From NCBI GenBank assembly GCA_024137785.1, contig JAHRHZ010000029.1, positions 7,601,253 through 7,665,252 of the forward strand: a stretch of DNA of 64,000 nucleotides, given 5' to 3'. The notes under the pieces were generated by a model. That model saw only the letters and a list, made by a program, of their open reading frames with translations. It did not search any database and had not been told where the DNA came from. This DNA comes from Ginglymostoma cirratum. Taxonomy: Eukaryota. Shown here piece by piece: positions 1 through 55,770 of this stretch (position 1 is its first letter; the number at the start of each line of letters is the position of its first letter). A program made the position numbers and the translations under genes.

Positions 1-790
1 CGACTGGGAGGTGCAGTTGTTTGTTGCGAACTGAGCGCAGGTGTTCTGCAAAGCGGTCCCCAAGCCTCCGCTTGGTTTCCCCGATGTAGAGGAAGCCACA
101 ACGGGTACAGCGGATGCAGTATACCACATTGGCAGAAGTGCAGGTGAACCTCTGCCTGATGTGGAAAGTCTTCTTGGGGCCTGGGATTGGGGTGAGGGAG
201 GAGGTGTGGGGGCAGGTGTAGCACTTCCTGCGGTTACAAGGAAAAGTGCCGGGTGTGGTGGGGCTGGAGGGGAGTGTGGAGCGGACAAGGGAGTCGCGGA
301 CGGAGTGGTCCCTCCGGAAGGCAGATAAGGGTGAGGAGGGAAAGATGTCTTTGGTGGTGGGGTCTGACTGCAGATGGCGGAAGCCCAGCTCATCTCCACC
401 TCCCTAACCGGTTTTTCCTCTCACCCCAAGCCACACCCCCATCTCCTATCTACTAACATCATCCCGCCCCCTTGACCTGTCCGTCCTCCCTGGACTGACC
501 TATCTCCTCCCTACCCCCCTACCTACACTCACCTTTACTGGCTCCATCCCCGCCTCCTCGACTTGTCTGCCTCCTCTCCACCTATGCTCTCCTCTATCCA
601 TCTTCTATCCACCTCCCCCTCTCTCCCTATTTATTTCAGAACCCCCTTCCCCTCCCCCATTTCTGATGAAGGGTTTAGGCCCGAAACGTCGAGTTTTCCT
701 GCTCCTATGATGCTGCTTGACCTGCTGTGTTCATCCAGCCCCATGCTTGTTATCTTGGATTCTCCAGCATCTGCAGTACCTTTTATCTCT
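1..790 (-). mobile_element. Penelope-like retroelement copy A: GIY-YIG/linker region on the minus strand (1-~381) fused to an inverted copy of the 3' terminal region (~382-790, plus strand)
   Basis: 1-380 is nearly identical to 11698-12080 (GIY-YIG region). From ~382 the sequence switches to the reverse complement of the 11075-11500 terminus, ending ...GCAGTACCTTTTATCTCT. Directly abuts Gypsy RT sequence. Confidence 0.9.
663..690 (+). ncRNA. Minimal hammerhead ribozyme motif in PLE terminus (intact core)
   Basis: CTGATGA-A-GGGT-TTAG-GCCC-GAAAC-GTC: CUGANGA box, 4-bp stem II, GAAA box, palindromic ACGU stem III, GUC cleavage triplet. Confidence 0.7.
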
Positions 791-3173
791 GAATCATCTA
801 ACCAGTCCAGTTTGCAGAACAGGCAGCGCCAGTCATAATGATTGTAAAGCCCAACAGGTTGGTTCGCCTTTGTGGGGATTTTAAACAAATGGTGAACTAC
901 TTTTCAGAGCTGGATAATTTTATATGGAAAGCTGGCAGGGGTGCTGTCCTTAACAAAGCTGGACAGGAGCCATGTGGACTTGCAATTGCGGTCAGATGAG
1001 GATTCCTCGAAGTATACTACAATTAATAACCATAAAGGTTTGAGCCAATATACAAGACAGCCATTTGGGGTATTATCAGCCTGTGCAATTTTCCAGTGGA
1101 TGATGGAAAACATTTTACTATGTCTTCCCTGAGTCATCATTTATCTAGATGACATGATAATAATAGGGAAGTCTAATAAGGAGCACTTAAAGAATTTCAA
1201 CATTTTCTTTAGACGTTTCTCCCAGAGCATAGACCTGAAAAGGGAAAAATGTGAGTTCCAGGCGACCGATGTGACCAACTTGGGCGACAGTGTCAACAAG
1301 ACTGGTTATACATGTTGGAAGATAAAGTGAGGGCGATCAAAGGTGTCCCAACAAGGGGTAATATTAGCTCAAAGGTGGCCCAATTGAGGTGAACAGCCAA
1401 TAGCATATGCATCCAGGACTTTGGCTATTGCAGAGTATAATAGAGAAGGGAGGTTTAGCGGTCATAACTGGAGTCAGGAAGTTTCACCAATATCTTTACG
1501 GACGTAAATTTGTAATAATAATGGACCACAAACCCCTGCTAGGTCTACTTCAAGAGGATAAGGGGTAGGGCCACTCCATAGCTTCAGGCTGAATTCAGTG
1601 GTGGGCTCTAATGTTAAGTGCTTATCATTAGAAGTTGGAACACTGTCCAGGAGGCCAAGTCGCAAATGTGAATGCATTGAGCTGTCTCCCTCTGGCAGTT
1701 ACACCACAAATGGTACCGCCACTGGAAGAGTCTATAATGGTTTTGAATTTTCTGGATCCACTTCCAGTCACAGCTGACAACATCAGACTTTGGATACAGA
1801 AAGATTCGGTCCCGGCAAAACTGAAAATGCTGGTGGTGATGGGGAGCACCAAAGGACCATCACAACCAGAACTGAAACCTTTTTGGACCCGGAGAGACCA
1901 GATCACAGTAGAGGACGGCTTATTATCATGGAGTGCAAGAGTGATTGTCCCGAGCAAAGGTCATTACCAGATACTGGCTGAACTCCACCAGGGTCATCTA
2001 GGGGTTTTCAAAGTGAAGATGTTGGTGAGAGGTTATGTCTGGTGGCCAGGATTGGATACAGACATAGCCGCATTGGCAGGGCAGTGCCCAGATTGCCAAC
2101 AAAGACGAAGATTACTGCCAGCGGATCCCCTACATTCATGGGATTGGCTGGGTAAACCCTGGACTCGGTTACAAGTTGACTGCACAGGTCCTTTTGTGGG
2201 TTCAATGTTCATGGTCATTGTGGCTGGACATGCATAAAGTTCATTTGTCAAACACAAGGACAAAAGAAAAACTGCGTATTTTGCAATATATGGACTCCCA
2301 GAAGCGTTGGTCACAGGTGACGGGCCATCGTCCACCCGCAGGGAATTCAAGGATTTCCTAAAGTCGAATGGTATTTATCATATAAAGACAGCTCCATACA
2401 ATCCTTCATCCAGTGGTCTGGCAGAAAGAGCAGTCCAAACTTTGAAGGCAGGCTGTAAGAAACAGCCTACGGATTCACTAGGTAGCCAATTGTCCAATTC
2501 CTAATTGATAACAGGATCACCTTTCATGCAACTACAGGGATAGCTCCGTCACAGTTGCACGTGGGACAAGACTCTGCACCATGGTAAATTTAATCTTTCC
2601 GGACCTTGGGTGTGGGGAGGGTGAAGCGGCATCAGGAACATCAGTGCTGGACACAAGCTTCTGCTAAGTGAGAGAGACAGTTTACAAGTGGAGATGAAGT
2701 TTGGTGTAGGAACCATGGGAATGGCCCTGAACGAGTAAGAGACATGGTCAACACAAAGTCAGGTCTAGTTACGTTATCAAGTACGGGTAGGTGCAATGGT
2801 CCTGAACAAGCAAGTGGACCATATGAAAGCTGCAAACTTGCAAACGGGCTGGAAGCAAAATGTGCCCTGCTCTTCAGAACAGTTGGAAAGGCTGGCAGAA
2901 CGCATGGGTTCTCCCTCTCTGTCAAGTGGTGAAAAGACCTCTGAACCTGAGATGGACATGGCAAGATGTCACCTTTTCAACACCTTTGCCACCTGAAGAG
3001 GAGAATGAATTTCTTCCGAGATGCTCTTGGCGCAAGAGGTGAGTTACTGGGCATTACACACTGCCCATATCCAAGGAAGAGTCAGAAGAACCTGTCCCGG
3101 TGCTAAAATGCCCCTTGGAGGAGCAACGAGAAAAAGAACCAGCCTCCATCCTCAGACTCAGAGCAGGGGTGGA
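791..3173 (+). mobile_element. Decayed Gypsy/Ty3 (Mag-like) LTR retrotransposon pol: RT, RNase H, integrase, PPT
   Basis: Frameshifted motifs: RLCGDFK, YTTINNHKGLSQYTRQPFGV, IIYLDD (RT); PIAYASRTL, KFHQYLYGRKF, DHKPLL (RNase H); LHQGH..WWPGLD..CPDC, PWTRLQVD, APYNPSSSGLAERAVQTLK (integrase); purine tract GAGCAGGGGTGGA just before the LTR. Confidence 0.92.
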
Positions 3174-3532
3174 TGTGGCAATTGTAATGAGGGTCAGCCA
3201 AGTGGACCTCTGAAGAAGGGTCTAGGCCTGAAACGTCAGCTTTCCTGCTCCTCTGATGCTGCTTGGCCTGCTGTGTTCATCCAGCTCTATACACTGTTAT
3301 CTCAGATTCTCCAGCATCGGCAGTTCCTACTATCTCAGAGAATATGAGTTCCCTGATTGGGGTTGTTAATCTGGTCCAATAAGGGAGCCCTGGCTGACAG
3401 ATGAATGCAGGCATGTCAGACATTCTGTTCACTGAGCTGGCTCTGAGGGAGCTGGAACTGTGTTAAGGACTTTCCACGTGTAAATAAAGGGTGACTTGGT
3501 GGCAGGATACTGGCCTCTGTGGAGTTATTTCA
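3174..3532 (+). mobile_element. Gypsy 3' LTR (TG...CA), interrupted by a PLE mini-element
   Basis: Starts TGTGGCA right after the PPT, has AATAAA at ~3483 and ends TTATTTCA. Confidence 0.7.
3209..3336 (+). mobile_element. PLE-terminus mini-element with hammerhead motif (long end), inserted in the Gypsy LTR
   Basis: TCTGAAGAAGGGTCTAGGCCTGAAACGTC...CAGTTCCTACTATCTC matches the PLE terminus. Confidence 0.85.
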
Positions 3533-5277: not shown

Positions 5278-7074
5278 AAGCTGGAAACCAGATCAGCTGC
5301 CCAATCCATAGTGGTGACCAGCCATTTAGGGCATAAAGGTCACACTTAGGGATGTTTTGCAATGGCACCACTATTTTCCAGTATTGAGTGGCTCCCTGAT
5401 TTGACTGGAAGCTGTTGGCTCAATGGAAGAAGTTTCTGGGAAGCAGTCAAGGTGGTCATTGGAACTGGAGCTTCCATTCCACCCATCCGTGTGGATACAA
5501 GGCCAGGCACATCTGTCACCACTCTTACAGTGTAGTTTCCCCTCCACTTTGATGGACACCCGCCCCCCCATTGATTATTCAATGCAGGTAACCACGGGGT
5601 CTTCCATGTTAAGACTCACTTGCATTCGTCTACCTGCCTGATCAGCCCCAGGTCTGGGGGTTCCAGCCTGGCCTCTGATTGGTCCCCAGAAACTGCTCAC
5701 CATCCTCGATGAAATGGTGATTTCAGACACAGAAAATTCGGAAGCTGTCTCCTGGAAGGATCGTGCCAGAAGGCACACTGGTGACTTGGACAGGTATGTG
5801 ACTCCCAAACATTTCTGAAGTAGAGTCAAAACAGATTTGGAACATTAATGCTGTTTTTCTCTCTCACAGATGCTACCAGACCTGCTGGGTCGCTCCAGGA
5901 TTATTTGTTTTTGTTCCCAGTATCCCAAAAGCAGTACTTTGCTTTTATCTGACTCCCAGAGAGGTTGAACATCAGGAGCCCAAAGCCCATTGGAAAGTTC
6001 AACCCATTTTCTCTCTCCACATGTGCTACTTGAACCACTTGCTGTTTTCCAATGTTTTATAGCTTTTAATTCCTTCTTGTGTTTTCCTGTTCTGAGATTG
6101 ATTTGGAAATGTTGGCAAACCATTCCCCCGCCCATGACCTAACCCAACTTAACTTCCCCGAGTCTATTTACACATTTTCAGAGTCAAATGCGCCTCGTCC
6201 TAATGTCAGAAGAGCAGCAGTAGATTACAGGCAACAACAAGTGATGAGCTAATTGGGAAGCGATGTGCTAAAATTATAGGGACAGCTCTTAAAGCAACAG
6301 CATTTTCAGATATACGTTTCCAACATAAAACTAATTCCTTCCACACTATCCTGTGTTTTCACAGCAACTAAAATTGGAACAATTAGCCCACCATATGGCT
6401 GGGTCACATGGTAAGTAAGGTATTCCAATTTAATGTGTAATCCCATGGAAAAATCTCATTAAATATCTTCTTGAGCACGCGAATATCGACTGTGTTTTGT
6501 TTCTGCATTCATTTAGGTTTCACGATTATTTTTGCAGCTTTTTAAAATCTATGGAGATGTCAGGCTATCACTCAGGCATTCAGTTTTAAGTCAGAATAAA
6601 GCCTGTACCACTGAAATTTTCCAATGCATAAACCATTACAAAAACAAGGTGCAATGTGGAAATACATTTATTTCTCTTTAAAGTGATTTCTTCCAGCTCC
6701 TATCTGAATAAGCAAAGCAAACACACAGCAAAAACGTGTTAAGGGCTTGTTAACTGCTGCCATGTGCCTTTATGCACAGGAACATTTGGTGCCTCCTGCA
6801 ACTTTGAAACCACTTACAGATGGTCACATCTTCATAGATTTTTGCAAAATGGAAGTATAATATCTCTTGCCTAACTGTCATTATAAACCGGGGATCATTC
6901 TGTTTTCTTCAGTCACATGCACACAGCAAAACAGAACATCAGATCTCAGTTCCCTACCTATTGAAATGTGTGGGTGATTAGCTTCTTATTATTTCCAATC
7001 AGATTCACATATAACATTACAGTCTCCCACTTCTGCTTCAAACCATCTGTTTTAGTTACTGTCAGACTTGATTA

Positions 7075-8397: not shown

Positions 8398-8494
8398 AGA
8401 TACCACAGTGTGGAGCTGGAGGAACACAACAGGCCAGGCAGCATCAGAGGAGCAGGAAAGCTGACATTTCAGGTCGAGGCTCTTCTTCAGAAAA
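8398..8494 (-). mobile_element. PLE-terminus mini-element (short end) with degenerate hammerhead
   Basis: Reverse complement reads TTTTCTGAAGAAGAGCCTCGACCTGAAATGTCAGCTTTCCTGCTCCTCTGATGCTGCC... Confidence 0.8.
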
Positions 8495-8524: not shown

Positions 8525-8656
8525 AGAGATAGTAGGAACTGCCGATGCTGGAGAATCTGAGATAACACGGTGTAGAGCTGGATAAACACAGCAGGCCAAG
8601 CAGCTCCTCTGATGCTGCTTGGCCTGCTGTGTTCATCCAGCTCTACACCGTGTTAT
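8525..8656. repeat. PLE-terminus fold-back: 43-bp inverted arms (8562-8604 / 8614-8656), 9-nt loop
   Basis: ATAACACGGTGTAGAGCTGGATAAACACAGCAGGCCAAGCAGC-TCCTCTGAT-GCTGCTTGGCCTGCTGTGTTCATCCAGCTCTACACCGTGTTAT, one mismatch. Confidence 0.9.
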
Positions 8657-10699
8657 TCCTATTTTTAAGTTGCTTTCAGTAATTCTAAATTAAAAAGTTA
8701 CTCACACGTGGCAAATTGACGTTGTGATGAGAAAAGCTTCTATTTTGAGACAAAACAAAATTGTTTGAAGTGTTGCCCCAGTAAGATGACTCATGGTCAA
8801 TATTACTCTACCCAACATGTTAATGCATTTGACTGAAAACTCATGGAGGTGGGATTAAACACTTGTCAAAACAGACTAATTTTGGGTGCAATTTGTGCTG
8901 AATTGCAAATTGTGCAAAATCCAGAAAGTTTACTTGAAACTTGCAGTTGTTAAATTGCAGACTACATCTGGTATTAATCAATTTTTTTTTGAAGAGTTCC
9001 CAAAAAGTCTCAGGACCTATGTCTGATTTGTTGAGTCCAGCCAGTTGTCATAATGTTGCAATTTGTTTTTTATGTGGATTCAGATCTCCCAATCTTGAGA
9101 TCATCAGAGACCAGAGGTACGACCCAAGATGCATGTTGGGATCCTATGGAAGTTTAAACGTGCTGATCTCTGTGGGAACTGCCTGGGAAGTTTGAATTTC
9201 TGATGTGTAATTCCCCTGGTCTCACAAATCTTTTGCTAAAGGCTTGAACTCTGAGTTAGAATCAGATCCTTCAGAGAGTTCCTGGAAATGTTAGACAGAT
9301 TAAAGCTCAGTCTAACTCCTGTGTAACTAAATGACTGACTCTTCTCAGTCACTCACACTGTACCCCTCTGACCCCACTGATCTGCTCTGATTAATCCAAA
9401 TGATCCCTTATCTATCCCCAACTAACCCCTCCTGACTACCCCACTGAACCCTACTATCTATTCCCCAACCTAAGCCAACCCAACTTCCCCTGACCCCCTG
9501 ATTACCTGCAATTTCCTGATTAACCTCCTAATCCAGCTTAACTGTCCGCCCGCAACCATGTTATCTCCTAGCACTCAATCACACCCCAACCAGATTTGGC
9601 AAGACCCTAACCTGACTGTCCCTTATGACCTGTCAATGCTGACCCACCTAACCATGTACATGCCGTTCCATTCACATGTCACACTATCTACTTTCACTTT
9701 ACTCATCTACCCACCCTCTATCCTATCCATCTGTTACCTTGTGCGTCTATGACTCCACTCAACTGCTACCTTGCCATCTGCTATTCTACCCAGTTAGCAC
9801 ATCACCCACATACCAACTTAACTCAACCACTTCTCATATTAATTACCTACCTCTCTTTCCTTTTCTCCTATTCATCAACTCACCCATTCACAAACATTCT
9901 TACTGGATATGTAGAGTTATCACATGCTAGCTAATGCCATATTAAGGGAGCACCTCCACTCTTCTCCTTGACTCCACAGCTCTGTCTAATGGACAATGTT
10001 CTCTTTATTTCTGGGGGATCAGAATACCTAGCAAGACATGCAGAGGAGACAGGGGACAGCAATGGAACTAAGCTCTGAGATGACCTCAATCATTATAACT
10101 GTTTTTCACATTGCGTCTGACAGGCAACTTGTTCAAACAATCCACCAAAGGAGAGCACGTTCATTTTCTAACCATTCAAAGTAGAGGATGGGAAATCATT
10201 GCAAGTGTACTCAAAATTTCCCAACATGCTCTGCTTACAGAAACAAGAGCTGGCCAAAGAAATCCTTCAAAGTCAATATTTTCTTAAGATTTATTACAAC
10301 TTGATGAAACAATTCAAGATGTCTGGGCCTTGCATGTAAGCTATAACTTTCAACTATGCCTGCTGACTTAAGTTTTCTTATTATAAATCACTATGATAAT
10401 GGAAATTATCAAGTAAGACATGGCATGCTTTAATGGAATCCTAGTGGAACACCACCTGTGTCTAAAAGAACAGAGTTATAGCATGACAAATCTAAATTGG
10501 TACTTCCCATCAAAAGTGTTGACTTAGGAATTCAGAACAGAAAACATTAACAGCAATTGAATGTATAAGATCATTAATGGATTAATAGATAGACATGAAA
10601 CAAATGCATGCTTTGAATAGATAATGAAATATGTCTGTGCATCCGACTGCAATTATCCACCAACCGAAAAACTGCACTCCGTATTGATTCCCTGTATGC

Positions 10700-11074: not shown

Positions 11075-12789
11075 TAGAGATAATAGGAACTGTAGATGCT
11101 GGAGATTCTGAGATAACAAGGTGTAGAGCTGGATGAACACAGCAGGCCAAGCAGCATCATAGGAGCAGGAAATCTTGACGTTTTGGGCCTAGACTCTTCA
11201 TCAGAAATGGGGGAGGGGAAGAGGGTTCTGAAATAAATAGGGAGAGAGGGGGAGGCAGATAGAAGATGGATAGAGGAGAGGATAGGTGGAGAGGAGACAG
11301 ACATGTCAAAGAGGTGGGGATGGAGCCAGTAAAGGTGAGTGTAGGTGGGGAGGTAGGGAGGAGATAGGTCAGTCCAGGGAGGACGGACAGGTCAAGGGGG
11401 TGGGATGAGGTTAGTAGGTAGGAGATGGGGGTGTGGCTTGAGGTGGGAGGAGGGGATAGGTGAGAGGAAGAACAGGTTAGGGAGGCGGGGACGAGCTGGG
11501 CTGGTTTTGGGGTACGGTGGGGGAGGGGACATTTTGAAGCTTGTGAAATCCACATTGATACCATTGGGCTGCAGGGTTCCCAAGCTGAATATGAGTTGCT
11601 GTTCCTGCATCCTTCGGGTGGCATCTTTGTGGCACTGCAGGAGGCCCAGGATGGACATGTCGTCTGAGGAATGGGAGGGGGAGTTGAAATGGTTGGCGAC
11701 TGGGAGGTGCAGTTGTTTATTGTAAACCGAGCGCTGGTGTTCTGCAAAGCGGTCCCCAAGCCTCTGCTTGGTTTCCCCGATGTAGAGGAGGCCACAATGG
11801 GTACAGCGGATGCAGTAAACCGCATTAGCAGATGGGCAGGTGAACATCTGCTTGATGTGGAAAGTCTTCTTGGGGCCTGGGATGGGGGTGAGGGAGGAGG
11901 TGTGTGGGCAGGTCTAGCACTTCCTGCGGTTGCAGGGAAAAGTGCCGGGTGTGGTGGGGCTGGAGGGGAGTGTGGAGCGGACAAGGGAGTCACGGAGAGA
12001 GTGGTCCCTCCGGAAAGCAGACAAGGGTGGGGAGGGAAAGATGTCTTTGGTGGTAGGGTCGGATTGCAGATGGCGGAAGTGTCGGAGGATGATGCGTCGG
12101 ATCTGGAGGTTGGTGGGGTGGTACGTGAGGACGAGGGGGATTCTTTTTTGGTTGTTATTGCAGGGACAGGGTGTGAGGGATGAGTTGCGAGAAATGCGGG
12201 AGACCCGGTCAAGTGCGTTCTCGGCCATTCCGGGGTGGGGGGGAAGTTGCAGTCCTTGAAGAACAAGGACATCTGAGATGTAGGGGAGTGGAATGCCTCA
12301 TCCTGGGAGCAGATGCGGCGGAGGCGAAGGAATTGGGAATAGGGGATGGCATTTTTGCAGTTCAAAATCTCCCCTCCCCCTACTGCATCCCAAAACCAGC
12401 CCAGCTCGTCCCCACCTCCCTAATCTGTTCTTCCTCTCACCTATCCCCTCCTCCCACCTCAAGCCCCACCCCCATTTCCTATCTACTAACCTCAGCCCGT
12501 CCCCTTGACCTGTCCGTCCTCCCTGGAGTGACCTATCTCCTCCCTACCTCCCCACCCACACTCACCTTTACTGGCTCCATCCCTGCCTCTTTGACCTGTC
12601 TGTCTCCTCTCCACCTATCTTCTCCTCTATCCATCCTCTATCCGCCTCCCCCTCTCTCCCTATTTATTTCAGAACCCTCTTCCCCTCCCCCATTTCTGAT
12701 GAAGAGTCTAGGCCCGAAACATCAAGATTTCCTGCTCCTCTGATGCTGCTCGGCCTGCTGTGTTCATCCAGCCCCACACCGTGTTACCT
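11075..12789 (-). mobile_element. Penelope-like (Neptune-like) copy B with inverted terminal arms and a 13-bp TSD
   Basis: ORF 11392-11847 VYCIRCTHCGLLYIGETKQRLGDRFAEH...HF...EQQLIFSLGTLQPNGINVDF (GIY-YIG); linker PLVLTYHP and TFPCNRRKC; arms ~11111-11538 and 12361-12789; TSD ACTGTCAACTAAT at 11062-11074 and 12790-12802. Confidence 0.95.
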
Positions 12790-12990: not shown

Positions 12991-14435
12991 CAGAGATGGT
13001 GAGAACTGCAGATGCTGGAGTCAGAGATAACACAGTGTGGAGCTGGAGGAACACACCAGACCAGGCAGCATCAGAGGAGCAGGCAAGTTGATGTTTTAGG
13101 TCAGGGCCTTTCTTCAGAAACCGGGGAGGGGGAAGGAAGCTCTGAAATAAGTAGAGAGAGGAGGGGTGGGGCTGGGGAAGGTAGGTGGATGGTGATAGGT
13201 GAGTACAGGTAGGCAGTGGTGGGGATTGGTCAGTGAGGTGGGAGGAGCAGATAGGTGGGAGAGAAGATGGACAGATTGTGTCAGGACGTGTCAGGTCTAG
13301 GAGGCAGGGATGAAAGGAGGGGATTGGTCATGGGAGAGGCCAGGGGTAGGGAGATTTTGAAACTGGTGAAGTCCACATTGAGACCATTGGGTTGTAGGCT
13401 CCCCAGGCGGAATATGAGGTGCTGCTCCTCCAGTTTCTGGGTGGCATCATTGTGAAATTGGAAGAGGCCCAGGATGGACATGTCACCCAGGGAGTGGGAG
13501 TGGGAGAGGGAGTTTAAATGGTTCGTGACCAGAAGGTGTTGTTGTTTGTCACGAATAGAGCGCAGGTGCTCTACAAAGCAGTCTCTGAGCCTCCACTTGG
13601 TCTCACCGATGTAGAGGAGGCCACATTGGGAGCAGCAGATGCAATAGACCACGTTGACGGATGTGCAGGTGAACCTCTGTCTGATGTGAAAGGTTTGTTT
13701 GGTGCCTTGAATGGAAGTGAGAGGGGAAGCATAGGGGCAGGTGTAAGCACTTCCTGCGGTTGCAGGAAAGGTGCTGGGGGTGGTGGGGCTAGTGGGGAGT
13801 GTGGAGCAGATGAGGGAGTCACGGACAGACCAGTTCCTACGGAAGGTAGATAGGTTGTGGGGTCAGATTGCAGGTGGCGGAAGTGGCAAAGAATGATTCT
13901 TTGGATACAAAGTTTAGGGGGGTGATATGTGAGGATGAGGGGGATTCTGTCTTTGCTTTTGTTGTGGGGAGGGGATGTGAGGGCAGAAGTGCGGGAAAAG
14001 CAAGAGATGCGGTCAAGAGCATTTTTAACTACCGAAGGGGGGATGTTGTGGTCCTTGAAATAAGAGGACATCTGGGAGTTCAGGAGTGGAACGCCCCATC
14101 TTGGGAGCAGACGCGGCAGAGGCAGAGGAGTTGGGAGTAGGGGATTGCATTCTTGCAGGAAGGTCGGTGAGAGGAGGTGTAGTCCTGGTAGCTGTGGGAG
14201 TCGGTGGGTTTGAAATAGATATCGGTGTCGAGGCGGTTACCAGAGATGGAGACAGAGAGGTCTAGGAAGGAGAGATAGGTATCAGAGATGGTCCAGGTGA
14301 ACTTGAGGTTGGGGTGAAAGGCGTTAGTAAAGTTGATGAACTACTCAAGCTCCTCGTGGGAGCACGAGGCAGCGCCGATACAGTCATCAATGTAACGGAG
14401 GAAGAGGTGAGGGATAGTGCCAGTGTAGCTGCAGA
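12991..14435 (-). mobile_element. Penelope-like copy C (divergent subfamily), 5'-truncated within RT
   Basis: Reverse strand ~14370-14410 encodes HLFLRYIDDCIG (RT YIDD); ORF 13281-13652 VYCICCSQCGLLYIGETK (GIY-YIG); TSD AGCATG(C/T)TAACT at 12979-12990 and 14436-14447. Confidence 0.93.
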
Positions 14436-16809
14436 AGCATGTTAACTATTGGGGTGGGTAGGTTCCTAGGCATGGTCCTCTGTTCAAGCAGTTTAATTTT
14501 AGAGTTTTAGCATAAGCTGGAGTGAAGGAAACATCTCTTTTAGCAGAAATCTGTTGAAATTCTTGGAGTTCGCTAAAGGAGTTATAACACTTGTTGACCA
14601 GACAACTCTACTGGTAATGGGTTGAATTTCTGGTATAGCTATGCTGAGGTGTGAGATAGTTTTAGATACAAAACTCAACAGTTAAGGAATATTAGAAAGG
14701 GGATATTCCTGACCCAAGATGCTTAAGGTGCTCAAGGCAACTACATTGAACAAGGAGGTTACAACCTTAGTACAATTACAGGAGATTTGCATGGACAACC
14801 CTGCTGGAAGGCTCAAGAAATCTAACTCCTTCTAGGAATTACTTACACAGTGCCCAAACCAAACACTTAATCTTCCAAGTTTTGATAAGTATATGACCTG
14901 AGAATTTTTCAATGTACATCAAATGGGTGGAGAAAGGGAGTTAAGAATTTAGTTTGAAAAAGTAGTTTTGTTCATTGTGATTTTATTCTCTTTGATGTAA
15001 TTGTAGTAATAGAATCTGGTTACGATAATTCATTTACTTTGTTTTTTTGTTTAAATTCCTTTTGTTTTAAACAGTGACACACGTAGCGTTATTATTTTAA
15101 TGAATACCTTAGTTTTCAGAATCTGAAAAAAAAATCCTCAAAATGTTACTGCTTTTGACTGAAATCATACAACTGGTAGAATTACAATGGGCTGGATGGC
15201 CTCATTCTTTGCAGCATAATTCTATACACTTATATTTTGACTCATAAAATATGCTTTTCTTTTCAAGTGTGTTTCCAGAGCAATATCAAGGAAAATCAAC
15301 CAGTTTGGGTCATATTTGTAAGTGCAATGTACAGCTAATGAGTGCTCTGATAAGACAAGAATAATTTTTCACCAAGCTGTATACTGAAATTCCCCTATGA
15401 TCCAAGCAATGCAGTATATACGGTTAAAGGAATCTTGTACCCATTCCTCTGGGTCTTCTTAGAAAGCTATTCTGAAATGCATCCAAGACCGCTACAATAC
15501 ATTTCGATATGTTGTCAGGGCCAGCTCTGAGTTCATCCAGTCTAATGGCTCCCAGGCTACTTCAGTCTATCATTAAGTCCTCATTTCACTCCTCAGCTAC
15601 TAGTTCTGAAAATGAATTCCAATAGCCTTTGCTTGTAAGTGCAGGCTACCACTGATACACAATCACTTCTTTCTGGAGCTGCAAGAGCCTGACAGTCCCC
15701 AGCAGCAAGCTGTTTAAGCTTCACTGCAAACTGGCATTTACATTTAGCAAGACACTACTCTGTTTGCATTGTGCTGAAACTCTTCCTTTATTTTATCTGA
15801 AAGCACACAGCTATCTGCTGATTGTCACTGACAATGGATGTAGTATCTCTCACTCCGTGACTGGTTGGAAACTGCAGACCAAGCAAATGATAAACTGGAT
15901 CCATCAATGACAAACAGCAGTAGGGAGCCTCAGTGCCTGTGGGTTTAACACAGGTAAAAATAAATTTTCTTGCCTCTTCTCAATTCATTCTATTAGGGAA
16001 GCAATGCATTTATTTTTCATGCGACCATTTGATTGTCACCTTAATTTTGCCTGCCAATTTTCACTGTTTATCAGGGGAATTCTGGGAGACATTGGAATGG
16101 AACACTGTATCCAGGACAGCAATGAAATATTACTGTGTGCAATCATTGACTAGAAAACAAGCTATGGAAAACAGATGGAAACATAAGGTTTCTCTGCCTT
16201 GTGTGTCTCTAGACACAGGATGTCATCTTAAGCCTAAGTCTAATCATTGACTAGCTGGCTCCAATTGAGAAGCTGATTAGACAGATATTTCCAGCACTGT
16301 TATCATGGATTTGCGGACAACCCACTCTGGAGTTATCTTCAAGTTTTAAAAGGACCCAGTTCAAGTGCCAAGACAGTGAGAAAGTGCGACGAAAACAAGT
16401 CAGCAGTGCATCACTGCCAGGAATGCCTTTCAAATGTTTTTGTTTCAAACATACTAATGTTGTCTGTGGCACTAACAATTAATAAAACGTCAAGACAAGA
16501 AAGCAAAGAGTAGTAGATGCCAATCTGTTTGATCCACCAGTTTAACTAAACGTTTCCACTGTGCCCAATACCATCTACAGCATGTATGGTAGCAAATTGC
16601 CCATGGTTTGTTTGGCGACACTTCCCTAATCCACAACCTCCATGGCAAGGCCAGCCCGCGCATGGAAACCATCGTCATTAATTTGGCTCGCTTTAAGTCA
16701 CACATCATCTGGACTTAGCCATTTATCACTGCTTCTTCATAAGTACTCAGTCAATACCCTGAAGCTCTATACCTAACAGCACTGTGAGAGTCACAAACAG
16801 TTTGGACAG

Positions 16810-27640: not shown

Positions 27641-27746
27641 AGAGATAAAAGGTACTGCAGATGCTGGAGAATCCGAGATAACAAGCATAGGGTTGGATGA
27701 ACACAGCAGGTCAAGCAGCATCATAGGAGCAGGAAAACTTGACGTT
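27641..27746 (-). mobile_element. PLE terminus (copy D, long end) inserted in Tx1 RT, running into the gap
   Basis: AGAGATAAAAGGTACTGCAGATGCTGGAGAATCC... is the near-exact reverse complement of 685-790. Confidence 0.88.
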
Positions 27747-33962: not shown

Positions 33963-34439
33963 TTCAAGGAACAATCATCCACAATTGATTGATTGGGCCA
34001 AACCCGATGAGGAATATCATAAATATAGTCTGCAGACCATACAAGATCAAGGTCAGAAGAGTGTTCAAGATCAGAACCAAGATGAACAAACCTCAAGCTA
34101 AAGGCCTATTAATCTTCCAGGTAAAAGGGGATGCTTTCTGAAAGAACTGTGAAACTTCCAGACCACCTGGACTTGTGAAGTTGAAGATTTGGTGGGAGGA
34201 TGAGACAGTGGTGAATGCAATTATATGCATGAATGTACAAACCCTAACAATGAGAAAAAGCTTATGGCTAATGGCGTATACTGTAATGGTTCTTAAAGGG
34301 TTAATCTTGGATGTCACACAAAATGGGAGATCCATGGGAAAGGCAATAAATGTGTCATCTATTTGTACCAATAGTCTTAGTAAGAAATATCTAACTAGCG
34401 AATCTAACTTGTATCTAATTGCTATCATAGACTAAATTA

Positions 34440-36220
34440 CACCTTGTTAACAGCATCTGGCAGCATTCTTCTATCCACTAAAATCACACTCTCCTTAAGT
34501 AAAAAATAACCTAAAACCCCAAGTGTGGTCTCACCAATTCCCTGAACAGTTGTTGTAAGATGTCACTACATTTATACTGCATTCCCTAGTCCCAGCCAAT
34601 AAAGGCCAGCATTCCATATGGTTTCTTAAGTACTTGCTACATACACAAGTTAATGTTTTATGATTCATGTACAAGGTCAACCAGATATCTCTGTATAGCA
34701 CCGTTCTGCAATCTCTCATCATTTAATCATATTCCGATTTTCTATTTTTCCTGCCAAAGGGTATATCATCACACCTCCTCACATTATACTGCGTGCACCA
34801 ATTTTTTACCCCAAACTATTCTCCTAACAACTTGGTCTCCAAACTCTGTATCGTCAGCAAATTTGGCTACAATACAACCTGCCATTGCATCTAAGTAGGT
34901 AGTGCACATTGTAAATATTTGAGGCTCCAACTCCAATTGTCATGGCACTCCACGAGTTATAAAATAAGCAAGAGCCCCTTAACCTGGCTCTGTGATTCCT
35001 GTTAGTTAGCCAATCCTTTACCTATGCTAATACTTCACCCTCAACATCATGTGGCACCTTAAGAAAAGTCTTTTGAAAATCCAAACACACATCTACCTCT
35101 ATCAACCTTACTTGTTACATAGAATCATAGAGTTATACGGCATGGAAACAGACCCCTTGGTCCAACATGCTCATGCCAAGCAGATATCCTAAGCTGATCT
35201 AAACCCATTTGACAGCTTTTGGCCCATATCCCTCTAAACCCTTCCTATTCATGTACCTATCCAGATGCATTTTAAATGTTGGAATTGCACCCGCCACCAC
35301 AAAAACTTCCGGCAGCTCATTCCATACACCACACCACCCTCTGCATGAACCAGTTACACCTCAGGTCCCTTTCAAACCTTTTCCCTCTCGCCTTAAAGCT
35401 ATGCCTTCTAGTTTTGGACTCTTGTACCCTGGGAAAAAGACTTTGGCTATTCAACCTATCCATGCCCCTTGTGATCTTATAAACGTCTCTAATGTTACCC
35501 CTCAGCCTCCAACACTCTGAGGAAAATAGCCCCTGCTTATTCAGCCTCTCCCTATAACTCAAACCCTCCAGTCTCAGCAATGCCCTTGTAAATCTTTTCT
35601 GAACCCTTTCAAGTTCAACATCCTCAAAAATTTCCAGTAAATTTGTCAAACATGGTTTCCCTTTCACAAAATCAAGTTTACTTGGCGTAACTGTATCATG
35701 ATTTTCCAAATGCTCTGCTATTTTCATCTAAAATTGGACTCTAGAATTTTCTTAGTGAAAGAAGTTAGAATAGCTGGCACACAGGTTTCTGTTTTCTGTC
35801 TCTCTTTTCTTTTAATAGTGGTGCCACCTATACAGCTTTCCATTCTGCTGGGATCTTTCTAGAACTGAGGGGACTTTGGACAATTACAGCAATGTTGTAA
35901 TTATCTCTGCAACCGCTTCCGTTAAGACCTTAGCATCTAGGCCATTAGCTCCAGGGGACTTCATAGCGCCATGAGTTATCCTTGTCAATTTTTTAATCTC
36001 ATGACTGTTTGCAATAATTTGTACCCTCTCTTGGTTTTGAACTGGTGTTTTTGTGCCTTCTATTGTTAAGACAGATCCAAAATATTTTTGTACGATTTCC
36101 TAGTTACCCATTATGAATTCTCCAATACTATTTATTGAGGAACCAATGCTTACTTTAGTTACTCTCATAAGTTTAAATAGTTGGTAGAAGATTTTTCCGC
36201 CATTTTACATTGCATATTCA
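34440..36220 (-). mobile_element. Older CR1 remnant with a younger CR1 (35121-35617) nested in it
   Basis: ORF 35317-35727 is a chimera of FVKGKPCLTNLLEIFEDV (older) and ELERVQKRFTR..LSYRERL (younger); ACAT duplicated at the junctions. Confidence 0.8.
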
Positions 36221-38734: not shown

Positions 38735-40040
38735 AGATGGGTGATCTGTAAAACCAGTCAGATCACTGTTACAGATGTAGATCAATGTAAAACAGTAACA
38801 GCATTGGACAGAATCTGCACGGATTTACAAAAATGAAATCATGCTTGACAAATCTACTGGAATGCTCTGAGAGTGTAACTGTTGGTAATAATGACAGGGA
38901 GCCAGTGGAAGTATTTTACTTGGATTTCCAGGAAGCTTTCAATCAGGTCCCACATCAGAGGTTAGCATGCAAAATTAAAGCACGTGGGATTGTGAAAGTG
39001 TACTGATATAGATAGAGAGACTGGTTGGCAGGCACAAAATGAAAGCACGTATGATTGTGACATTGTACTGATAGAGATTGGGAAACTGGCTGGCAGGCAC
39101 AAAACAAAGAGTCGGAATAAATGAGACTTTTTCTGGGTGGCAAGCAGTGACTGGGGGTCCCATAGGGATGAGTGCTCGGATTTAGATGAGGGAAGAAAAT
39201 GTAACATCTCCAAATTTACAGATGGCACAAAGCTGGGTGGAAAGTTGAGCTGTGAGGAGGATGCTGAGATGCTTTGTTGCGACCTTGACAGGTTAAGTGA
39301 GGGCGTGGCAGGTGAACTGTAATAAGGACAAATATGAGGTTGTCTACTTTGGTAGCAAAAACAGGAAAGCAAATTATTACCTGAATGGTGATAGATTGGG
39401 AAAGGGAGAGGTGCAACAAGATGCAGGTGTGCTTGCAAAACGGTCACTGAAAGTAAACGCACAAGTGCAGCAAGTGATGAGAAGGCAGATGGTATATTTG
39501 CCTTGATAGCGAGAGGATTCGAGTGCGGGAGCAGGGATACCTTTCTGCAAACATACTGAGCCTTGGCAAGACCACACATGGAGTATTGCATTCAGTTTTG
39601 GTCTCCTTATCCGAGAAGGGATTTTCTGACAATGGAGGGATTGCAACAAAGGTTTACCAGACTGATTCCCAGGATATCAGGACTGATGTATGAAGAGAGA
39701 CTGGATCAGTTAGAACTACATTTACTTGGGTTTAGAAGAATGAGGGGAAATCTCATCGAAATGTCCAGAATTCTAATAGGTTACACATGGTAAATGTAAG
39801 AAGAATGCTCCCAATGACCAGGGAGTCTAGGAGATAAAGTCTAAGGATACAACGTCAGACATTTAGGACTGAGATGAGAATATATTTCTTCTCCCAGAAA
39901 TGATCAGCCTGTGTAATTCTCTTCCACAGAAAGTGCTTGAGGCCAAAACATTAAATGTTTCCAAGAAGGAATTAGATATAATTCTTACAGCTGAAAGGAT
40001 TAAAGGTTATGGAGAGAAAGGATGAAGAGCGTACTGAAGC
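38735..40040 (+). mobile_element. CR1 RT remnant with an internal 65-bp tandem duplication
   Basis: KSCLTNLLE, LDFQEAFNQVPH, ISKFTDGTKLGG, ARPHMEYCIQFWSPY; duplicated units 38971-39035 and 39036-39100. Confidence 0.9.
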
Positions 40041-40180
40041 AAAATCAGAAATCGCTCAAGAAATTCAGCAGGTCTGGCAGGAACTATAGAGAGAAAGCAA
40101 AGTTAACACTTCAAGTCCAGTGATGCTTTTTCACAGTAACTCACAAATGCTTGCGAGGCATGCCAAATGTAACAACCCAC

Positions 40181-41117: not shown

Positions 41118-41539
41118 GTCAGTACAGTGTGGAGCTGGAAGAACACAGCAGGTCAGGCAGCATTAGAGGAACAGGAAAGTTGACATTTTGGGTGTACGGG
41201 ACCTTTCATCAGGACTGGGGAGGAGGAAGGGAGCTCATAAATAAATAGTGGGGTGGGACTGGACAAAGGCAGGTTGGGTGGTGATAGATGGATGCAGGTA
41301 GGGGGCAAAGGCAGGTTGGGTGGTGATTGATGGATGTAGGTAGGGGATTGTGGAAATTGGTCCCAGTGCCCCTCCCTTTTTATTTCTTAGCTCCCTTCCC
41401 CCTCCCCAGTCTTGATGAAGGGTCCTGACCCAAAAAATTGACTTTCTTATTCCTCTGATGCTGCCTGACCTGTTATGTTCCTCCAGCTCCACACTGTATT
41501 GACTCTGACTTCCATCATCTGCAGTTCTTGCTATCTCTT
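41118..41539. mobile_element. PLE-terminus fold-back element E (MITE-like) with TSD
   Basis: Arms ~41118-41260 and ~41361-41505 are inverted PLE termini with degenerate hammerheads; internal 42-bp tandem duplication ~41264-41346; TSD AAGTTTTAT(T/C)CT at 41105-41116 and 41540-41551. Confidence 0.85.
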
Positions 41540-44745: not shown

Positions 44746-45237
44746 CTACACATGCTGGTGCTATAATTACTGTGTCTACTGGTCTAATTCTGCCTTATTC
44801 CCATTTCATCTCCAGTTTACACTGCACTTGCGAGGTACATAATACAGTGAGTTTATACGCTCCTTGTCTTATAGACTTAGAAAGAGTTGAGTAAGCTTTA
44901 ACACGTATACTTGAGGTTTTTTTCCTTTATATTAATTCACAGGCTATGAACGTCACCGGCTGGACCAGCATTCATTGCCCATCCCAAGTTGCCCACACAC
45001 ACAGTCACCCAAGGCTGTAATCAAGCCTGGTTCACTGGTGCCTTGAGGCAGCAGTGCTAACAACTGAACATAAGAACTTTTTCTTCAAAATGGAGCCAAT
45101 GGCAATGCTAGTGCTAAAAAGCTGGTAAGACCTATCATTGAGGTGTGTACTTCCCATTAATGCCAGACAAAGGAGTGAAAATCAACCCCAGCTAATGACA
45201 GGAGATTAGCCTGTGATGTGCCCAGCAGGTTGACAAA

Positions 45238-45334
45238 TTTTCTGAAGAAGTGTCTAGGCCCGAAACGTCAGCTTTCCTGCTCCTCTGGTGCTGCTTGGCC
45301 TGCTGTGTTCATCCAGCTATACACCTTGTTATCT
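45238..45334 (+). mobile_element. Hammerhead-bearing PLE mini-element with a 12-bp TSD
   Basis: TSD CAGGTTGACAAA at 45226-45237 and 45335-45346; core CTGAAGAAGTGTCTAGGCCCGAAACGTC at 45242-45269. Confidence 0.9.
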
Positions 45335-45431
45335 CAGGTTGACAAACAGAAGTTTTCTCAATTCATACATGGAAAATGGCTTACTGGATAAAATACTCTC
45401 TCTAGTTTCCCATTGTCTAAAGAGGGCAGGA

Positions 45432-49870: not shown

Positions 49871-50331
49871 TTCTTTCTCTTGGCGGAATTTTAAATATAA
49901 ACCTTTACATTAATCCATTGTAAGGATTGCGGTGTAAATTGATTGTTACGTTATTAAGATCTAGTGGAACAAGCTAACATAAAAGCACACAAATGTCTCT
50001 GCATGCCATTACCCTTCTTAGGATTTTTATTTAAATACAGCCACATTTTCCAAAATCTAATTTTAAAAGAAACGAGACATAAATCTTCCCCAAGACATGG
50101 TAATCCCAAACAGGTCAAAAAATCTGTTGATTTATTTTTCCTGAACAAAACATAATTTGCATTTATGCATTACCTTGAGTGATTTTGGAAAGGTGTACTC
50201 ACTGATGCAATTTAGGAAACATGGGGCAAAATTTTCAGACAGATAGTACACACAGTGTAACTTCCCTGCTCTTCCCTGTGATAAGATGCTGCTAAACTTG
50301 AAAGGGTTCAGAAAAGATTTATAAGGATGTT

Positions 50332-51623
50332 AGACAACAAGGTGTAGAGCTGGATGAACACAGCAGGCCAAGCAGCATCAGAGGAGCAGGAAAGCTGACG
50401 TTTCGGGCCTAGACCCTTCATCAGAAATGGGGGAGGGGAAGAGGGTTCTGAAATAAATAGGGAGAGAGGGGGAGGTGGATAGAAGATGGATAGAGGAGAA
50501 GATAGGTGGAGAGGAGACAGACAAGTCAAAGAGGCGGGGATGGAGCCAGTAAAGGTGAGTGTAGGTGGGGAGGTAGGGAGGAGATAGGTCAGTCCAGGGA
50601 GGACGGACAGGTCAAGGGGGCGGGATGAGGTTAGTAGGTAGGAGATGGGGGTGTGGCTTGAGGTGGAAGGAGGGGATAGGTGAGGGGAAGGACAGGTTAG
50701 GGAGGCGGGGACGAGCTGGGCTGGTTTTGGGATGCGGTCGGGGGAGGGGAGATTTTGAAGCTTGTGAAGTCCACCTTGATACCATTGGGCTGCAGGGTTC
50801 CCAAGCGAAATATGAGATGCTGTTCCTGCAACCTTCGGATGGCATCGTTGTGGCACTGCAGGAGGCCCAGGATGGACATGTCATCTGGGAAATGGGAGTG
50901 GGAATTGAAATGGTTCGCGACTGGGAGGTGCAGTTGTTTGTTGCGAACCGAGCGTAGGTGTTCCACAAAGCAGTCCCCAAGCCTCCCCTTGGTTTCCCCG
51001 ATGTAGAGGAGGCCACAACGGAACAGCGGATACAGTATACCACATTAGCAGATGTGCAGGTGAACATCTTATTGATGTGGAAGGTTTACTTAGGGCCTGG
51101 GATGGGGGTGAGGGGCGTGGTGTAGGGACACGTTTAGCACTTCCTGCAGTTGCAGGGAAAAGTGCCGGGTGTGGTGGGGCTGGAGGGGAGTGTGGAGCGG
51201 ACAAGGGAGTCATGGAGAGAGTGGTCCCTCCGGAAAGCAGATAAGGGTGGGGAGGGAAAAATGTCTTTGGTGGTGGGGTCGGATTGCAGATGGCAGAAGT
51301 GCGGGAGGATGATGCTTTGGATCCGGAGGTTGGTGGGGTGGTAAGTGAAGACGAGGGGGATTCTGTTTTGGTTGTTATTGCGGGGAGGGAGTTTGAGGGA
51401 TGAGTTGCAGGAAATGCAGGAGACACGGTCGATGGCATTCTTGACCACTGACGGGGGGAAGTTGCGGTCCTTGAAAAACGAGGACATCTGAGATGTTCAG
51501 GAGTGGAATACCTCATTCTGGTAGCAGATGCGGCGGAGGCAAAGGAATTGGGAATAAGGGATGGCATTTTTGCAGGAAGGTGAATGGGAGGAGGTGTATT
51601 CTAGGTAGCTGTGGGAGTCGGTG
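50332..51623 (-). mobile_element. Penelope-like copy F (short end, 5'-truncated, no TSD)
   Basis: GIY-YIG C-terminus ORF 50697-50966; linker ORF 51134-51487 (IPLVFTYHP, TFPCNCRKC). Confidence 0.94.
50397..50424 (-). ncRNA. Minimal hammerhead ribozyme motif (intact core)
   Basis: Reverse complement CTGATGA-A-GGGT-CTAG-GCCC-GAAAC-GTC. Confidence 0.7.
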
Positions 51624-53140
51624 GCCAGGTTGGAGGTTTGAGCTGTAGGGAGAAGTTGAATTGGCTGGGGCTATTTTCCCTAGAACATTGGAGGCTGAGG
51701 GGTGATCTTATAGAGTTTTTTAAGTCACAAGGGGCATAAATAGGACGAATAGCCAAGGTCTTTTCCCAAAGGTAAGGGAGTCCAAAACTAGACGGCATGG
51801 GTTTAAGGTGAGAGGAGAAATATTTAAAAGGGTTCTAAGGGGTAACATTTTCACGCAGAGAGTAGTGCGTGTATGGAACAACTGCCAGAGGAAGTGGTGG
51901 AGGCTGGTACAATTACAACATTTAAAAGGCATCTGGATGGATCCATGAATAGGAAGGGTTCAGAAGGGTATGAACCAAATGGTGGCAAATGGGACTAGAT
52001 TAATTTAGGATATCTGGTCGGCATGGACAAATTGGACTGAAGGGTCAGTTTCCATGCTGTACATCTCGATGACTGTACGATCCATTCCACTGGACAGGCC
52101 AAGCAAGGCATTGTTTTATAATTTCATCTGAATTCTGCACGACTGACATTATAACATTCCCTCAGTACTGCACCAGGATTGTCAGACTAGAGTTGTCCTT
52201 GACAGCCTCAACATGATGTAGTACTTGAGGTTTTGGGCTGAATTTTCCCATTTTTTTGGCAAATTTTCCCATTTTTCAATAAGATTCGTGGCCCATGAAG
52301 CCAAGTTAGATCCTTGGTTTTCTAACAGGTTCCTCATGGTGCTGGTGAATGGAATGGTGCGATAGGATCTTTCCTACTGACTGACTAACGGGGCTACACT
52401 ACCAGATTCCAAGCCTGGACAGAGACAGCATCTCAGGGCAGTGCAGCATCAAGGAGAAAACCTCATGCCCAGTAGCTCATGAAGAAACTTGAGACGGGGT
52501 GATACTATGAAAAGCAGAGGCCCTTGCATAGTCTCTAACCAGAACACTGCGCAGGGGGCTGACCCCTCCACCCGAACCCTACCTAAACCCCGTCTCCAAC
52601 CCTTGGAACTTCCAGCTGAAGAGCAATACCTTGCATCTGGCAAGAGGACTCTTGACCTGCCTGGCCCACTGCTGATTGCCGATATGCCTTGAAAGACAAG
52701 TCAGCCCTTGCAGGGCATCATAGCAGTGCATCGGTAGATGCCAGGATGGAGGCAATGAAAATAGAGTGCCAATATCCATGTGGAAGGGTCCTTGCAGTGC
52801 TCCTGATGAATTGCTTTGCAGTTTTTCCGTGAGCGAGATGGAGGTCATTCTGAGGAGGTGGTGAACCTGCCAAGAACCCCCTCTGGTTTCTATACCAAGT
52901 GTTCCAGAGGGCTAGTTTGTATGGTGAGTTTGATCGGATTGCAATCCATGGTGAAGGTTGGGCTGTTAGCAAGTCATTTAAATGAGCAGCAATGATCAAA
53001 TTAGCAACTCTCCACTGATGACTAAGAATCTCTACACGCTCATTGAGAAAAGTGTATAAAATGCAGTGAAATGATCTTGCTGTTAAAATGGGCCTTGCCA
53101 AACATCTCACCACAGCCCATGCCAGCCAAAGCCAGGGTAA

Positions 53141-55269: not shown

Positions 55270-55770
55270 TGGTTGGTGACTCTGTTGCTTCACTCCAGAG
55301 TCTTGAACTCATAATCCAACAATCCAGTGTAGTGCTGAGGGAGTGCTCTTCTGCCAACAGGAGGTACCATCTTTCAGATCAGATGTTAAGCAAGTGTATC
55401 ACATGTCTGATGAAGGGTTTAGGCCCGAAACGTCAAGTTTTCCTGCTCCTATGATGCTGCTTGACCTGCTGTGTTCATCCAGCCCCATGCTTGTTATCTT
55501 GTATCACATGTCTTCTCATGTGGACATCAAAGACATTATTTTGAAGAATAGCAGGGGAGATATCAAAGGGTGCTGGACAATATTTATCCATCAACCAATA
55601 TCATGAAAATAGATTATCTGATTTGGTTGTGTTTATGGAATCTTGCTGTGCACAAATTGTTTGCACCATTTCTTACACTGCAATACTGAGCACATGACAA
55701 GTAATGTTGTACTTTTTTGCAAAGCACTTTGGGAAATCTTGATTTTTTAAAATTCTACATAAATGCAAGG
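55270..55770 (+). mobile_element. DeuSINE interrupted by a PLE mini-element
   Basis: GAGGGAGTGCT...GGAGGTACCATCTTTCAGAT...TTTTGAAGAATAGCAGGGGAG...CAATATTTATCC.TCAACCAA...ATAAATGCAAG. Confidence 0.8.
55406..55499 (+). mobile_element. Hammerhead-bearing PLE mini-element with a 14-bp TSD (intact core 55407-55434)
   Basis: TSD TGTATCACATGTCT at 55395-55408 (last 3 nt overlap the element start) and 55500-55513. Confidence 0.9.

Follow-up and report, generated by a model that had tools for sequence, protein, structure and literature searches.

Short Penelope-like insertions with a 5′ boundary at the hammerhead ribozyme in Ginglymostoma cirratum

Endonuclease-positive Penelope-like elements (PLEs) are characterized by two alternative tail ends, inverted arms and target-site duplications (TSDs), and a Cys linker has been described before their endonuclease (accessible text of PMC8557442). 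The minimal type I hammerhead ribozymes of PLEs, for which we follow the definition of PMC4209133, cleave poorly even as dimers, and solitary minimal hammerheads have already been ascribed to truncated PLEs (PMC4209133). In vitro, the reverse transcriptase (RT) of a lizard PLE starts internally at two tail sites, on an RNA spanning the junction between the pseudo-LTR (pLTR) and the ORF; a 5′-shortened RNA gives a shorter product, and insertion is normal with cleavage-dead ribozymes (PMC11167929). In Penelope of Drosophila virilis, a 75-nt intron begins 46 nt after the start site (accessible part of PMC2377424) and ends at helix I (PMC4209133). Animal non-LTR retrozymes have been proposed to be pLTR-derived in the accessible portions of bioRxiv 10.64898/2026.07.22.740005, PMC7229834 and the review PMC6765202, and PLE expansion in introns is noted in the accessible text of a whale shark preprint (10.1101/443036). 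No report of a preferred 5′ boundary at the ribozyme edge was found in a literature search that covered mainly papers available without subscription, and not Repbase.

Here we describe short PLE insertions in a stretch of 64,000 nucleotides from G. cirratum (GCA_024137785.1, contig JAHRHZ010000029.1, positions 7,601,253 to 7,665,252, forward strand), hereafter the window, and compare their 5′ ends with those of related sequences in public sequencing runs.

Penelope-like elements and short copies in the window

All 5′ end positions are counted from C3 of the CUGANGA box. The long copies and their associated arrangements are:

50332..51624, minus strand: long 5′-truncated PLE copy with endonuclease region, pyrimidine-rich 3′ UTR, intact hammerhead (50397-50424) and short tail
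11077..12789, minus strand: long PLE copy (11077-12360) with an inverted 5′ arm (12361-12789)
11062-11074 and 12790-12802: 13-bp TSD of the 11077..12789 copy
11392-11913: GIY-YIG endonuclease within the 11077..12789 copy, Pfam match above cut-off
12992..14440, minus strand: long PLE copy from an older subfamily that extends to the RT motif YIDD and is interrupted by stops; 5′ edge approximate
1..792, plus strand: head-to-head PLE insertion cut by the window edge, whose plus arm (382-792) ends with a hammerhead (663-690) and a long tail
41124..41537, no single strand: older head-to-head pair with arms starting at about -132 and -50; TSD of 9 bp exact, or 12 bp with one mismatch
8526..8657, no single strand: head-to-head pair of tail-only arms beginning at about +37 and +48, which places both starts downstream of, not at, the cut site
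27642..27746, minus strand: PLE 3′ end with its 5′ side lost in an N gap, left out of the counts

The parent elements are endonuclease-positive PLEs, with a GIY-YIG endonuclease, an optional tail, inverted arms and TSDs. One of the two endonuclease frames tested gave a GIY-YIG Pfam hit above cut-off. A PLE-type RT is suggested by the YIDD motif and thumb-like text recognized by eye, with a Pfam match in neither of two fragments, and the window holds no full RT. A Cys-rich linker, seen across broken frames before the endonuclease, suggests that the parent elements may belong to the Neptune clade, for which a CX2-5CxxC linker is characteristic. The tail ends fall into two classes about 34 nt apart, four insertions are head-to-head, and the TSDs measure 9-14 bp.

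Several further features were observed in and around these elements. The tail ends (e.g. 784-792 and 12989-12997) resemble the start of the core (TCTC-T/A-GA versus TTTCTGA), a likeness that could guide head-to-tail template jumps. The older head-to-head pair contains a 42-bp tandem duplication (41261-41344), and a 400-base N gap (27747-28146) cuts a PLE copy within its core. At 8526-8657, 30 bp from the short copy at 8398, the two tail-only arms form a near-perfect palindrome of about 97 bp that would yield a long hairpin RNA if transcribed; microRNA hairpins were considered here and at 41204-41419 and rejected, the Rfam matches being sub-threshold only and attributed to hairpins fitting by chance. 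Other retroelement remains comprise an integrase zinc-binding domain and a zf-RVT domain at 1632-2237 (plus strand) and 26494-27084 (minus strand), and a dispersed repeat family with broken frames (24550-24865, 33315-33963, 35120-35727, 51665-52077 and 60268-60600), presumably CR1-like, one copy of which abuts the PLE at 50332. A weak CUGANGA...GAAA pattern match at 23354-23384 (minus strand) is unrelated to the PLE tail and probably due to chance.

The short copies and their flanks are:

45238..45334, plus strand: short PLE copy of four T, hammerhead core and short tail, 95% identical to the end of the long copy 50424
45226..45237, plus strand: left TSD copy of the 45238 insert, 12 bp, exact
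45335..45346, plus strand: right TSD copy of the 45238 insert; its first 3 nt are shared with the longer tail of the element (microhomology for priming)
55406..55499, plus strand: short PLE copy, 5′ end at -1, core intact (55407-55434), 99% identity with the long copy 663
55395..55408, plus strand: left TSD copy of the 55406 insert, 14 bp, exact, the last 3 common to the element
55500..55513, plus strand: right TSD copy of the 55406 insert
3209..3336, plus strand: short PLE copy starting at -1, with intact core (3210-3237) and long tail (about 34 extra nt, 3303-3336); no TSD
8398..8494, minus strand: short PLE copy of an older subfamily, 86% identical to the long copy 13117; core at 8463-8490 with stems II and III broken; no TSD
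5808..5949, plus strand: short copy of a second PLE-like family, starting 7 nt before CTGA
5799-5807 and 5950-5958: TSD of the 5808..5949 copy, 9 bp exact, or 13 bp with one mismatch
40032..40149, minus strand: decayed short copy of the second PLE-like family, without the C-rich upstream tract and without a clear TSD
45242..45269, plus strand: minimal type I hammerhead core with CUGAAGA, 1-nt insertion, stem II with one mismatch and GAAAC-GUC; predicted cut after 45269

Using the 3209 copy as query, BLAST and nhmmer identified 14 strong module matches and one weak one in the window. The core region is present in 11 of these, seven of which run upstream into the pyrimidine-rich UTR, and the remaining four (C3 at 3210, 8490 on the minus strand, 45242 and 55407) lack the upstream UTR. 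The original prediction, made from the window's sequence, had described these four inserts as consisting of the PLE 3′ terminus, i.e. hammerhead core and tail only, and starting at the ribozyme; their coordinates and composition were confirmed, with lengths of about 95-130 bp, and so was the start at the ribozyme edge, which lies at -1 in the 3209 and 55406 copies, at -4 in the 45238 copy (where TTTT replaces the ATTT of the long copies) and at -3 to -8 in the 8398 copy, by reading of CCATTTTT. Two further short copies, unnoticed before, belong to a second, more distant hammerhead-tail family that is represented in the window only by short core-starting copies (5799-5958, plus strand, and 40032-40149, minus strand).

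The clean 12-bp and 14-bp TSDs that had been reported proved to be exact, the latter ending in TCT, which equals positions -1 to +2 of the element and thus leaves 11 unique bp plus 3 nt of junction microhomology. Exact repeats of at least 9 bp, the null for these two TSDs, occurred in 0 of 394 random position pairs, a null that allowed 6 nt of slack compared with 15 in the real search; both TSDs abut the junctions. The TSDs in two of the four copies thus support integration at the short length, rather than decay to it, as had been proposed. The 3209 and 8398 copies have no TSD, neither adjacent nor displaced by up to 2 kb upstream, and 5′ transduction with a displaced TSD was rejected, having been found in none of the three copies tested. 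Target sequence and the longer tail of the element have 3 and 2 nt in common at the 3′ junctions, which is what target priming at an internal RNA site would produce.

The PLE motif consists of CUGANGA, one inserted A, a 4-bp stem II and GAAAC-GUC, with no stem III loop. CUGANGA, the 1-nt insertion, a stem II closed by G10.1-C11.1, GAAA, a palindromic 15.2-16.2 and NUH are all present, and these features of the core support the predicted minimal type I hammerhead with a palindromic stem III. The ribozyme motif is intact in four of the 11 copies (663, 3210, 50424 and 55407) and altered in the others. Two of the four short copies are therefore intact: core and stem II are preserved at 3209 and 55406, stem II carries a mismatch at 45238, and stems II and III are broken at 8398. 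Stem (helix) I comprises 2-4 contiguous bp in the long copies and 1-2 in the short ones, compared with 4-5 bp in the definition. The monomer cannot form stem III, and the ACGU palindrome permits an intermolecular one; in structure prediction, an inactive hairpin or a duplex paired through stem II is preferred. RNA folds are no more stable than those of shuffled sequences (core hairpin z -0.57), and hairpins in the cDNA, at -1.7 to -4.3 kcal/mol, are negligible. None of five Rfam matches at E<=1 was to a hammerhead family, which is a weak test since the minimal cores lack stem III. Both sides of the GUC site are kept, as had been noted, so that the cut site lies inside the copies and their template was uncleaved or re-ligated. 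The ATG in CUGAUGA was rejected as a conserved ORF start, its frame being open through the tail in only one of five copies.

Sharpness of the 5′ edge and relationships among copies

Within the window, 4 of 14 placeable 5′ ends (leaving out the copy cut by the N gap) fall within -5 to -1, and in simulations of exponential truncation any 4 of 14 ends fell within 5 nt at P 0.002-0.025. Core-starting ends were found in four of six single insertions versus none of eight inverted arms (p=0.015). Cleavage at GUC was rejected as the source of the 5′ ends, as none of the 14 placed ends lies at the cut site.

Contigs from three public runs (X3, X12 and X15), representing three organisms, were aligned to the long copy 50332..51624, over 50308-51207, yielding 146,182, 367,556 and 18,852 aligned records, respectively. 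The best public runs share at most 0.31 of the window's sampled words and were therefore treated as relatives; X3 and X12 are genome-sized contig sets in which some loose ends were uncounted, and X15 is guessed to be RNA. The modal 5′ junction was 50427 (-3), with 517 (X3), 1,369 (X12) and 86 (X15) contigs among the 18 of 3,129 rows listed. The flanks at 50427 have a median loose length of 255 and an agreement of 0.35-0.36, i.e. many different flanks, and among the same rows this is the only long, heterogeneous 5′-side junction at the module edge, its counts amounting to 24-30% of those of the two top 3′-end rows combined. In X15, the row at 50407 (71 contigs) represents a variant core; its loose sequence crosses the core and then loses agreement, without a G-rich UTR, and the remaining internal rows listed, at 10-18 nt and higher agreement, are sequence variants. 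The original prediction had named a flat distribution of 5′ ends as its refutation; among the rows listed, the three related organisms show a sharp edge at 50427 instead. Pattern scans of metagenome contigs, viral contigs and prokaryote genomes returned no loci.

The ratio of tail depth to that of the upstream plateau was 4.1 in X3 and 5.0 in X12, with a 2.5-2.8-fold drop across a single 30-nt bin at the edge. The X15 depth shows no step (core bin to next, ratio 1.07), in contigs that cannot show RNA starts or levels. The X3 and X12 values suggest that about 55-80% of alignable copies end near the core, although contig depth does not equal copy number. In X15, guessed only to be RNA, depth falls gradually upstream of the core over 50428-50640, and the UTR reaches five times the depth of the endonuclease region. 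Deletions of 41-58 nt in the pLTR were seen on 50510-50576 in X12, only in organism B among the joints shown, and their ends are not intron-like.

The original prediction had allowed for a single non-autonomous, SINE-like family, which found no support, as the short copies group with different long-copy subfamilies. Monophyly of the four short copies was rejected by 32 log-likelihood units (AU p=4.9e-5; 11 copies, about 93 nt), the nearest long copies being 663 for the copy at 55407 (99%), 50424 for those at 3210 and 45242 (94-95%), and 13117 for that at 8490 (86%). Including the second family, the edge has thus arisen at least four times, which makes it a property of how these PLEs copy themselves. 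Core position 7 (e.g. 3214, 45246 and 50420) is A in three of four short copies versus one of seven long ones (Fisher p=0.09), and the 3209 and 45238 copies differ there from their nearest long copy. The same position is T, making ATG, in six of the seven long copies, and A may mark short-copy lineages. Rfam found no tRNA, 5S or 7SL match over the window, which also holds no tandem or circularly permuted copy (0 of the four named copies are tandem). With neither tandem arrangement nor a lineage of their own, the four copies are best classed as PLE insertion products and not as retrozymes or SINEs.

Candidate origins of the short copies

The region directly upstream of the edge has promoter-like sequence features:

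50425..50459, minus strand: candidate promoter-like module of the long copies: an AT-rich, TATA-like island lies at -35 and the A of an initiator-like CA[G/T]TY at -4

In all seven long copies the AT-richest 9-mer begins between -33 and -36, and in six of them the initiator-like A lies at -4 (the long copy 13117 lacks the match), in subfamilies that are only 70-75% alike; island and A are spaced 31 nt apart. The joint shuffle probability for the placement of island and initiator is 0.001, calculated post hoc. The TATA match is only 6/8, initiator-like words occur 2-6 times per upstream region, and a DPE-like match, judged by eye, is off the expected spacing by 2 nt. With reference to the consensus motifs of initiators and splice acceptors, the AT-rich island can also be read as a splice acceptor (TTTCAG), as can the CAG at -5 to -3 in two older copies, but the G/T variation appears to fit an initiator better. 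Spliced copies were not apparent: none of seven upstream regions contains a GT[AG]AG donor, and no intron-like skip occurs among the 15 of 615 joints shown. On the opposite strand, the island (50452-50459 and equivalents) reads AATAAA, a possible antisense polyadenylation signal. For a rotifer pLTR, a TATA and initiator-like motif pair has been proposed (accessible text of PMC3846280).

The explanation we rank first, and to which we assign about an even chance, is that the short inserts are target-primed run-off cDNA of a PLE RNA beginning at the 5′ edge of the ribozyme. The original prediction contained no transcript with this start. Because the RT meets structures at their 3′ side and the copies end on the 5′ side, a template that has ended is the simplest cause. 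The upstream pLTR would function as a Pol II promoter from which the RNA begins at the 5′ strand of stem I, so that the full transcript would carry hammerhead and tail at its two ends, in the manner of an LTR's R region. An RT start at the 3′ copy would give rise to the long and inverted insertions, and a start at the tail of the 5′ copy would produce a cDNA of fixed length (95-130 nt) off uncleaved RNA, to be integrated with a TSD. Ribozyme cleavage would have no part in this, and the short copies appear to be made without action of the ribozyme. Identical DNA would result if the RNA were trimmed back to a ribozyme bound by protein, a variant that we include in this explanation. The sharp edge, the polyphyly of the short copies, the similar behaviour of the second family and the unremarkable folds are in its favour, as are the promoter-like features upstream, the TATA and initiator pair of the rotifer pLTR, the internal RT starts of the lizard PLE and the restriction of core-starting ends to single insertions; against it, the edge is predicted at -4 but has its mode at -3, with two copies in the window beginning at -1, a cap-derived extra G is seen at the junction in none of the four copies, the X15 depth lacks a step, and transcription in D. 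virilis starts about 120 nt upstream of the ribozyme. A broader proposal, which we put forward tentatively and hold with less conviction, is that the RNA starts at the first hammerhead base pair and carries an R-like repeat, that the commonest insertion is integrated strong-stop cDNA, and that its rare head-to-tail dimers seed animal non-LTR retrozymes.

The same edge could in principle be produced on a 3′-end template if the RT dropped off, stalling or stuttering on the U-run (weak rU:dA) that fronts the pyrimidine tract of about 300 nt, the cDNA then being joined to an AT-rich target. We consider this unlikely, while rating it above the other alternatives. The edge does coincide with a switch in composition (pyrimidines 0.40 in the core versus 0.8-0.9 just upstream), extra T occurs at the junction of two copies and 3-nt microhomology at that of one, the ends are scattered from -1 to about -6, and the core can form a hairpin whose 5′ arm begins at C3. 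That hairpin, however, is no stabler than shuffles and the cDNA hairpins are negligible; neither the pyrimidine-rich region with U-runs at +30 to +60 nor the AT-richer island at -35 shows a 5′-side peak among the rows listed, and none of the eight inverted arms stops at the edge. The strong RT stop at the folded ribozyme that the original prediction offered as one possibility is not supported, with the boundary on the far (5′) side and RNA and cDNA folds no better than those of shuffles. CUGAU resembles the branch consensus, and a stop at a lariat branch point was rejected, as it would end copies near +4 and not -3. Ordinary random 5′ truncation, with the edge arising from small numbers or from alignment loss where subfamilies diverge upstream, is largely refuted and very improbable. 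PLE insertions are heavily 5′-truncated (accessible text of PMC8557442), upstream depth varies 2-3-fold between bins, and in other subfamilies the tail is shared to a greater extent than the UTR, but the TSDs abut the edge, the clustering has P <=0.025, and the loose sequence at 50427 is A/T-rich with an agreement of 0.35, not the G-rich continuation of a diverged UTR.

Two further alternatives assign the short unit a propagation of its own. Short master copies in each subfamily might be transcribed and re-copied in trans, as in SINEs, which we regard as distinctly unlikely. The distribution of A at core position 7 is consistent with such masters, the short unit includes the tail, the region where the RT of the lizard element starts (PMC11167929), and short copies appear commoner than long ones; nevertheless, monophyly of the short copies is rejected, one of them matches a long copy at 99% identity, the two copies without a TSD have no displaced one, the promoter-like island lies outside the short unit, and another cause would still be needed for the first edge. 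Alternatively, as in non-LTR retrozymes, dimers might be transcribed, self-cleave and circularize, with the PLE RT copying one round into unit-length inserts, which we judge somewhat less probable again. Joints from core start to tail end (88-89 nt) occur in 8+5 contigs of X3 and 14+11 of X12 among the 15 of 615 joints shown, the ACGU palindrome would allow an intermolecular stem III, and tandem hammerhead units related to pLTRs, with monomer derivatives, have been reported across vertebrates (bioRxiv 10.64898/2026.07.22.740005). These head-to-tail joints (13 and 25 contigs) reach only about 2-3% of the modal 5′ junction (517 and 1,369) among the rows listed, and no such joint is among the X15 joints listed; the window holds no tandem or permuted copy, minimal PLE hammerheads are poor cleavers even when dimeric (PMC4209133), eight of nine frog dimers were uncleaved (bioRxiv 10.64898/2026.07.22.740005), and short copies follow each long-copy subfamily. 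A circle route has a low probability and looks minor.

A sharp and abundant ribozyme edge is a genomic read-out that bears on pLTR build-up, on the PLE transcript start and on the role of the hammerhead. If run-off from the 5′ copy is the correct explanation, the internal-initiation model would extend to a second class of product, the many solitary minimal hammerheads in vertebrate genomes would be explained, and short retrozyme units would have a concrete origin.

Comparison with known systems

Retroviruses and LTR elements form strong-stop DNA, a run-off cDNA of fixed length resulting from internal priming near the RNA 5′ end, on RNA with a repeat at both ends. The resemblance to the proposed PLE product is an analogy only, as nicked target DNA and not tRNA would serve as the primer, and the product would be integrated and not transferred.

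In Penelope of D. virilis, the promoter is likewise located in the pLTR and the ribozyme lies near the transcript 5′ end; it differs in having a TATA-less internal promoter and a start about 120 nt upstream of the ribozyme, with an intron between (accessible part of PMC2377424). The window's PLEs share with Poseidon of Anolis carolinensis two tail ends, which there equal two RT start sites, an uncleaved RNA template and a module of ribozyme plus about 100-130 nt (PMC11167929). Poseidon probably represents another clade, the Cys linker of the window's PLEs appearing Neptune-like, and the main text of PMC11167929 contains neither a genomic run-off class nor a transcript start at the ribozyme.

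Animal non-LTR retrozymes, as described in the accessible portions of PMC7229834 and bioRxiv 10.64898/2026.07.22.740005, are similarly short, non-coding, pLTR-related and TSD-flanked, and contain a type I hammerhead. Monomer derivatives of them are known, and rare head-to-tail dimers occur in the window's relatives. In contrast, retrozymes are tandem units by definition, with canonical hammerheads and circular RNA in the accessible text of PMC7229834, whereas the window's short copies are solitary and follow the long-copy subfamilies, and their hammerheads are minimal and in many cases decayed.

The closest agreement is with endonuclease-positive PLEs as presented in PMC4209133 and the accessible text of PMC8557442, which share the GIY-YIG endonuclease, the YIDD motif, a minimal type I hammerhead in the pLTR, inverted 5′ arms, 9-14-bp TSDs and an optional tail of 30-40 nt. 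Truncation is described there as frequent, but with no preferred 5′ boundary at the ribozyme edge in the text accessible from these sources. The elements, the ribozyme type and 5′ truncation as such are already known.
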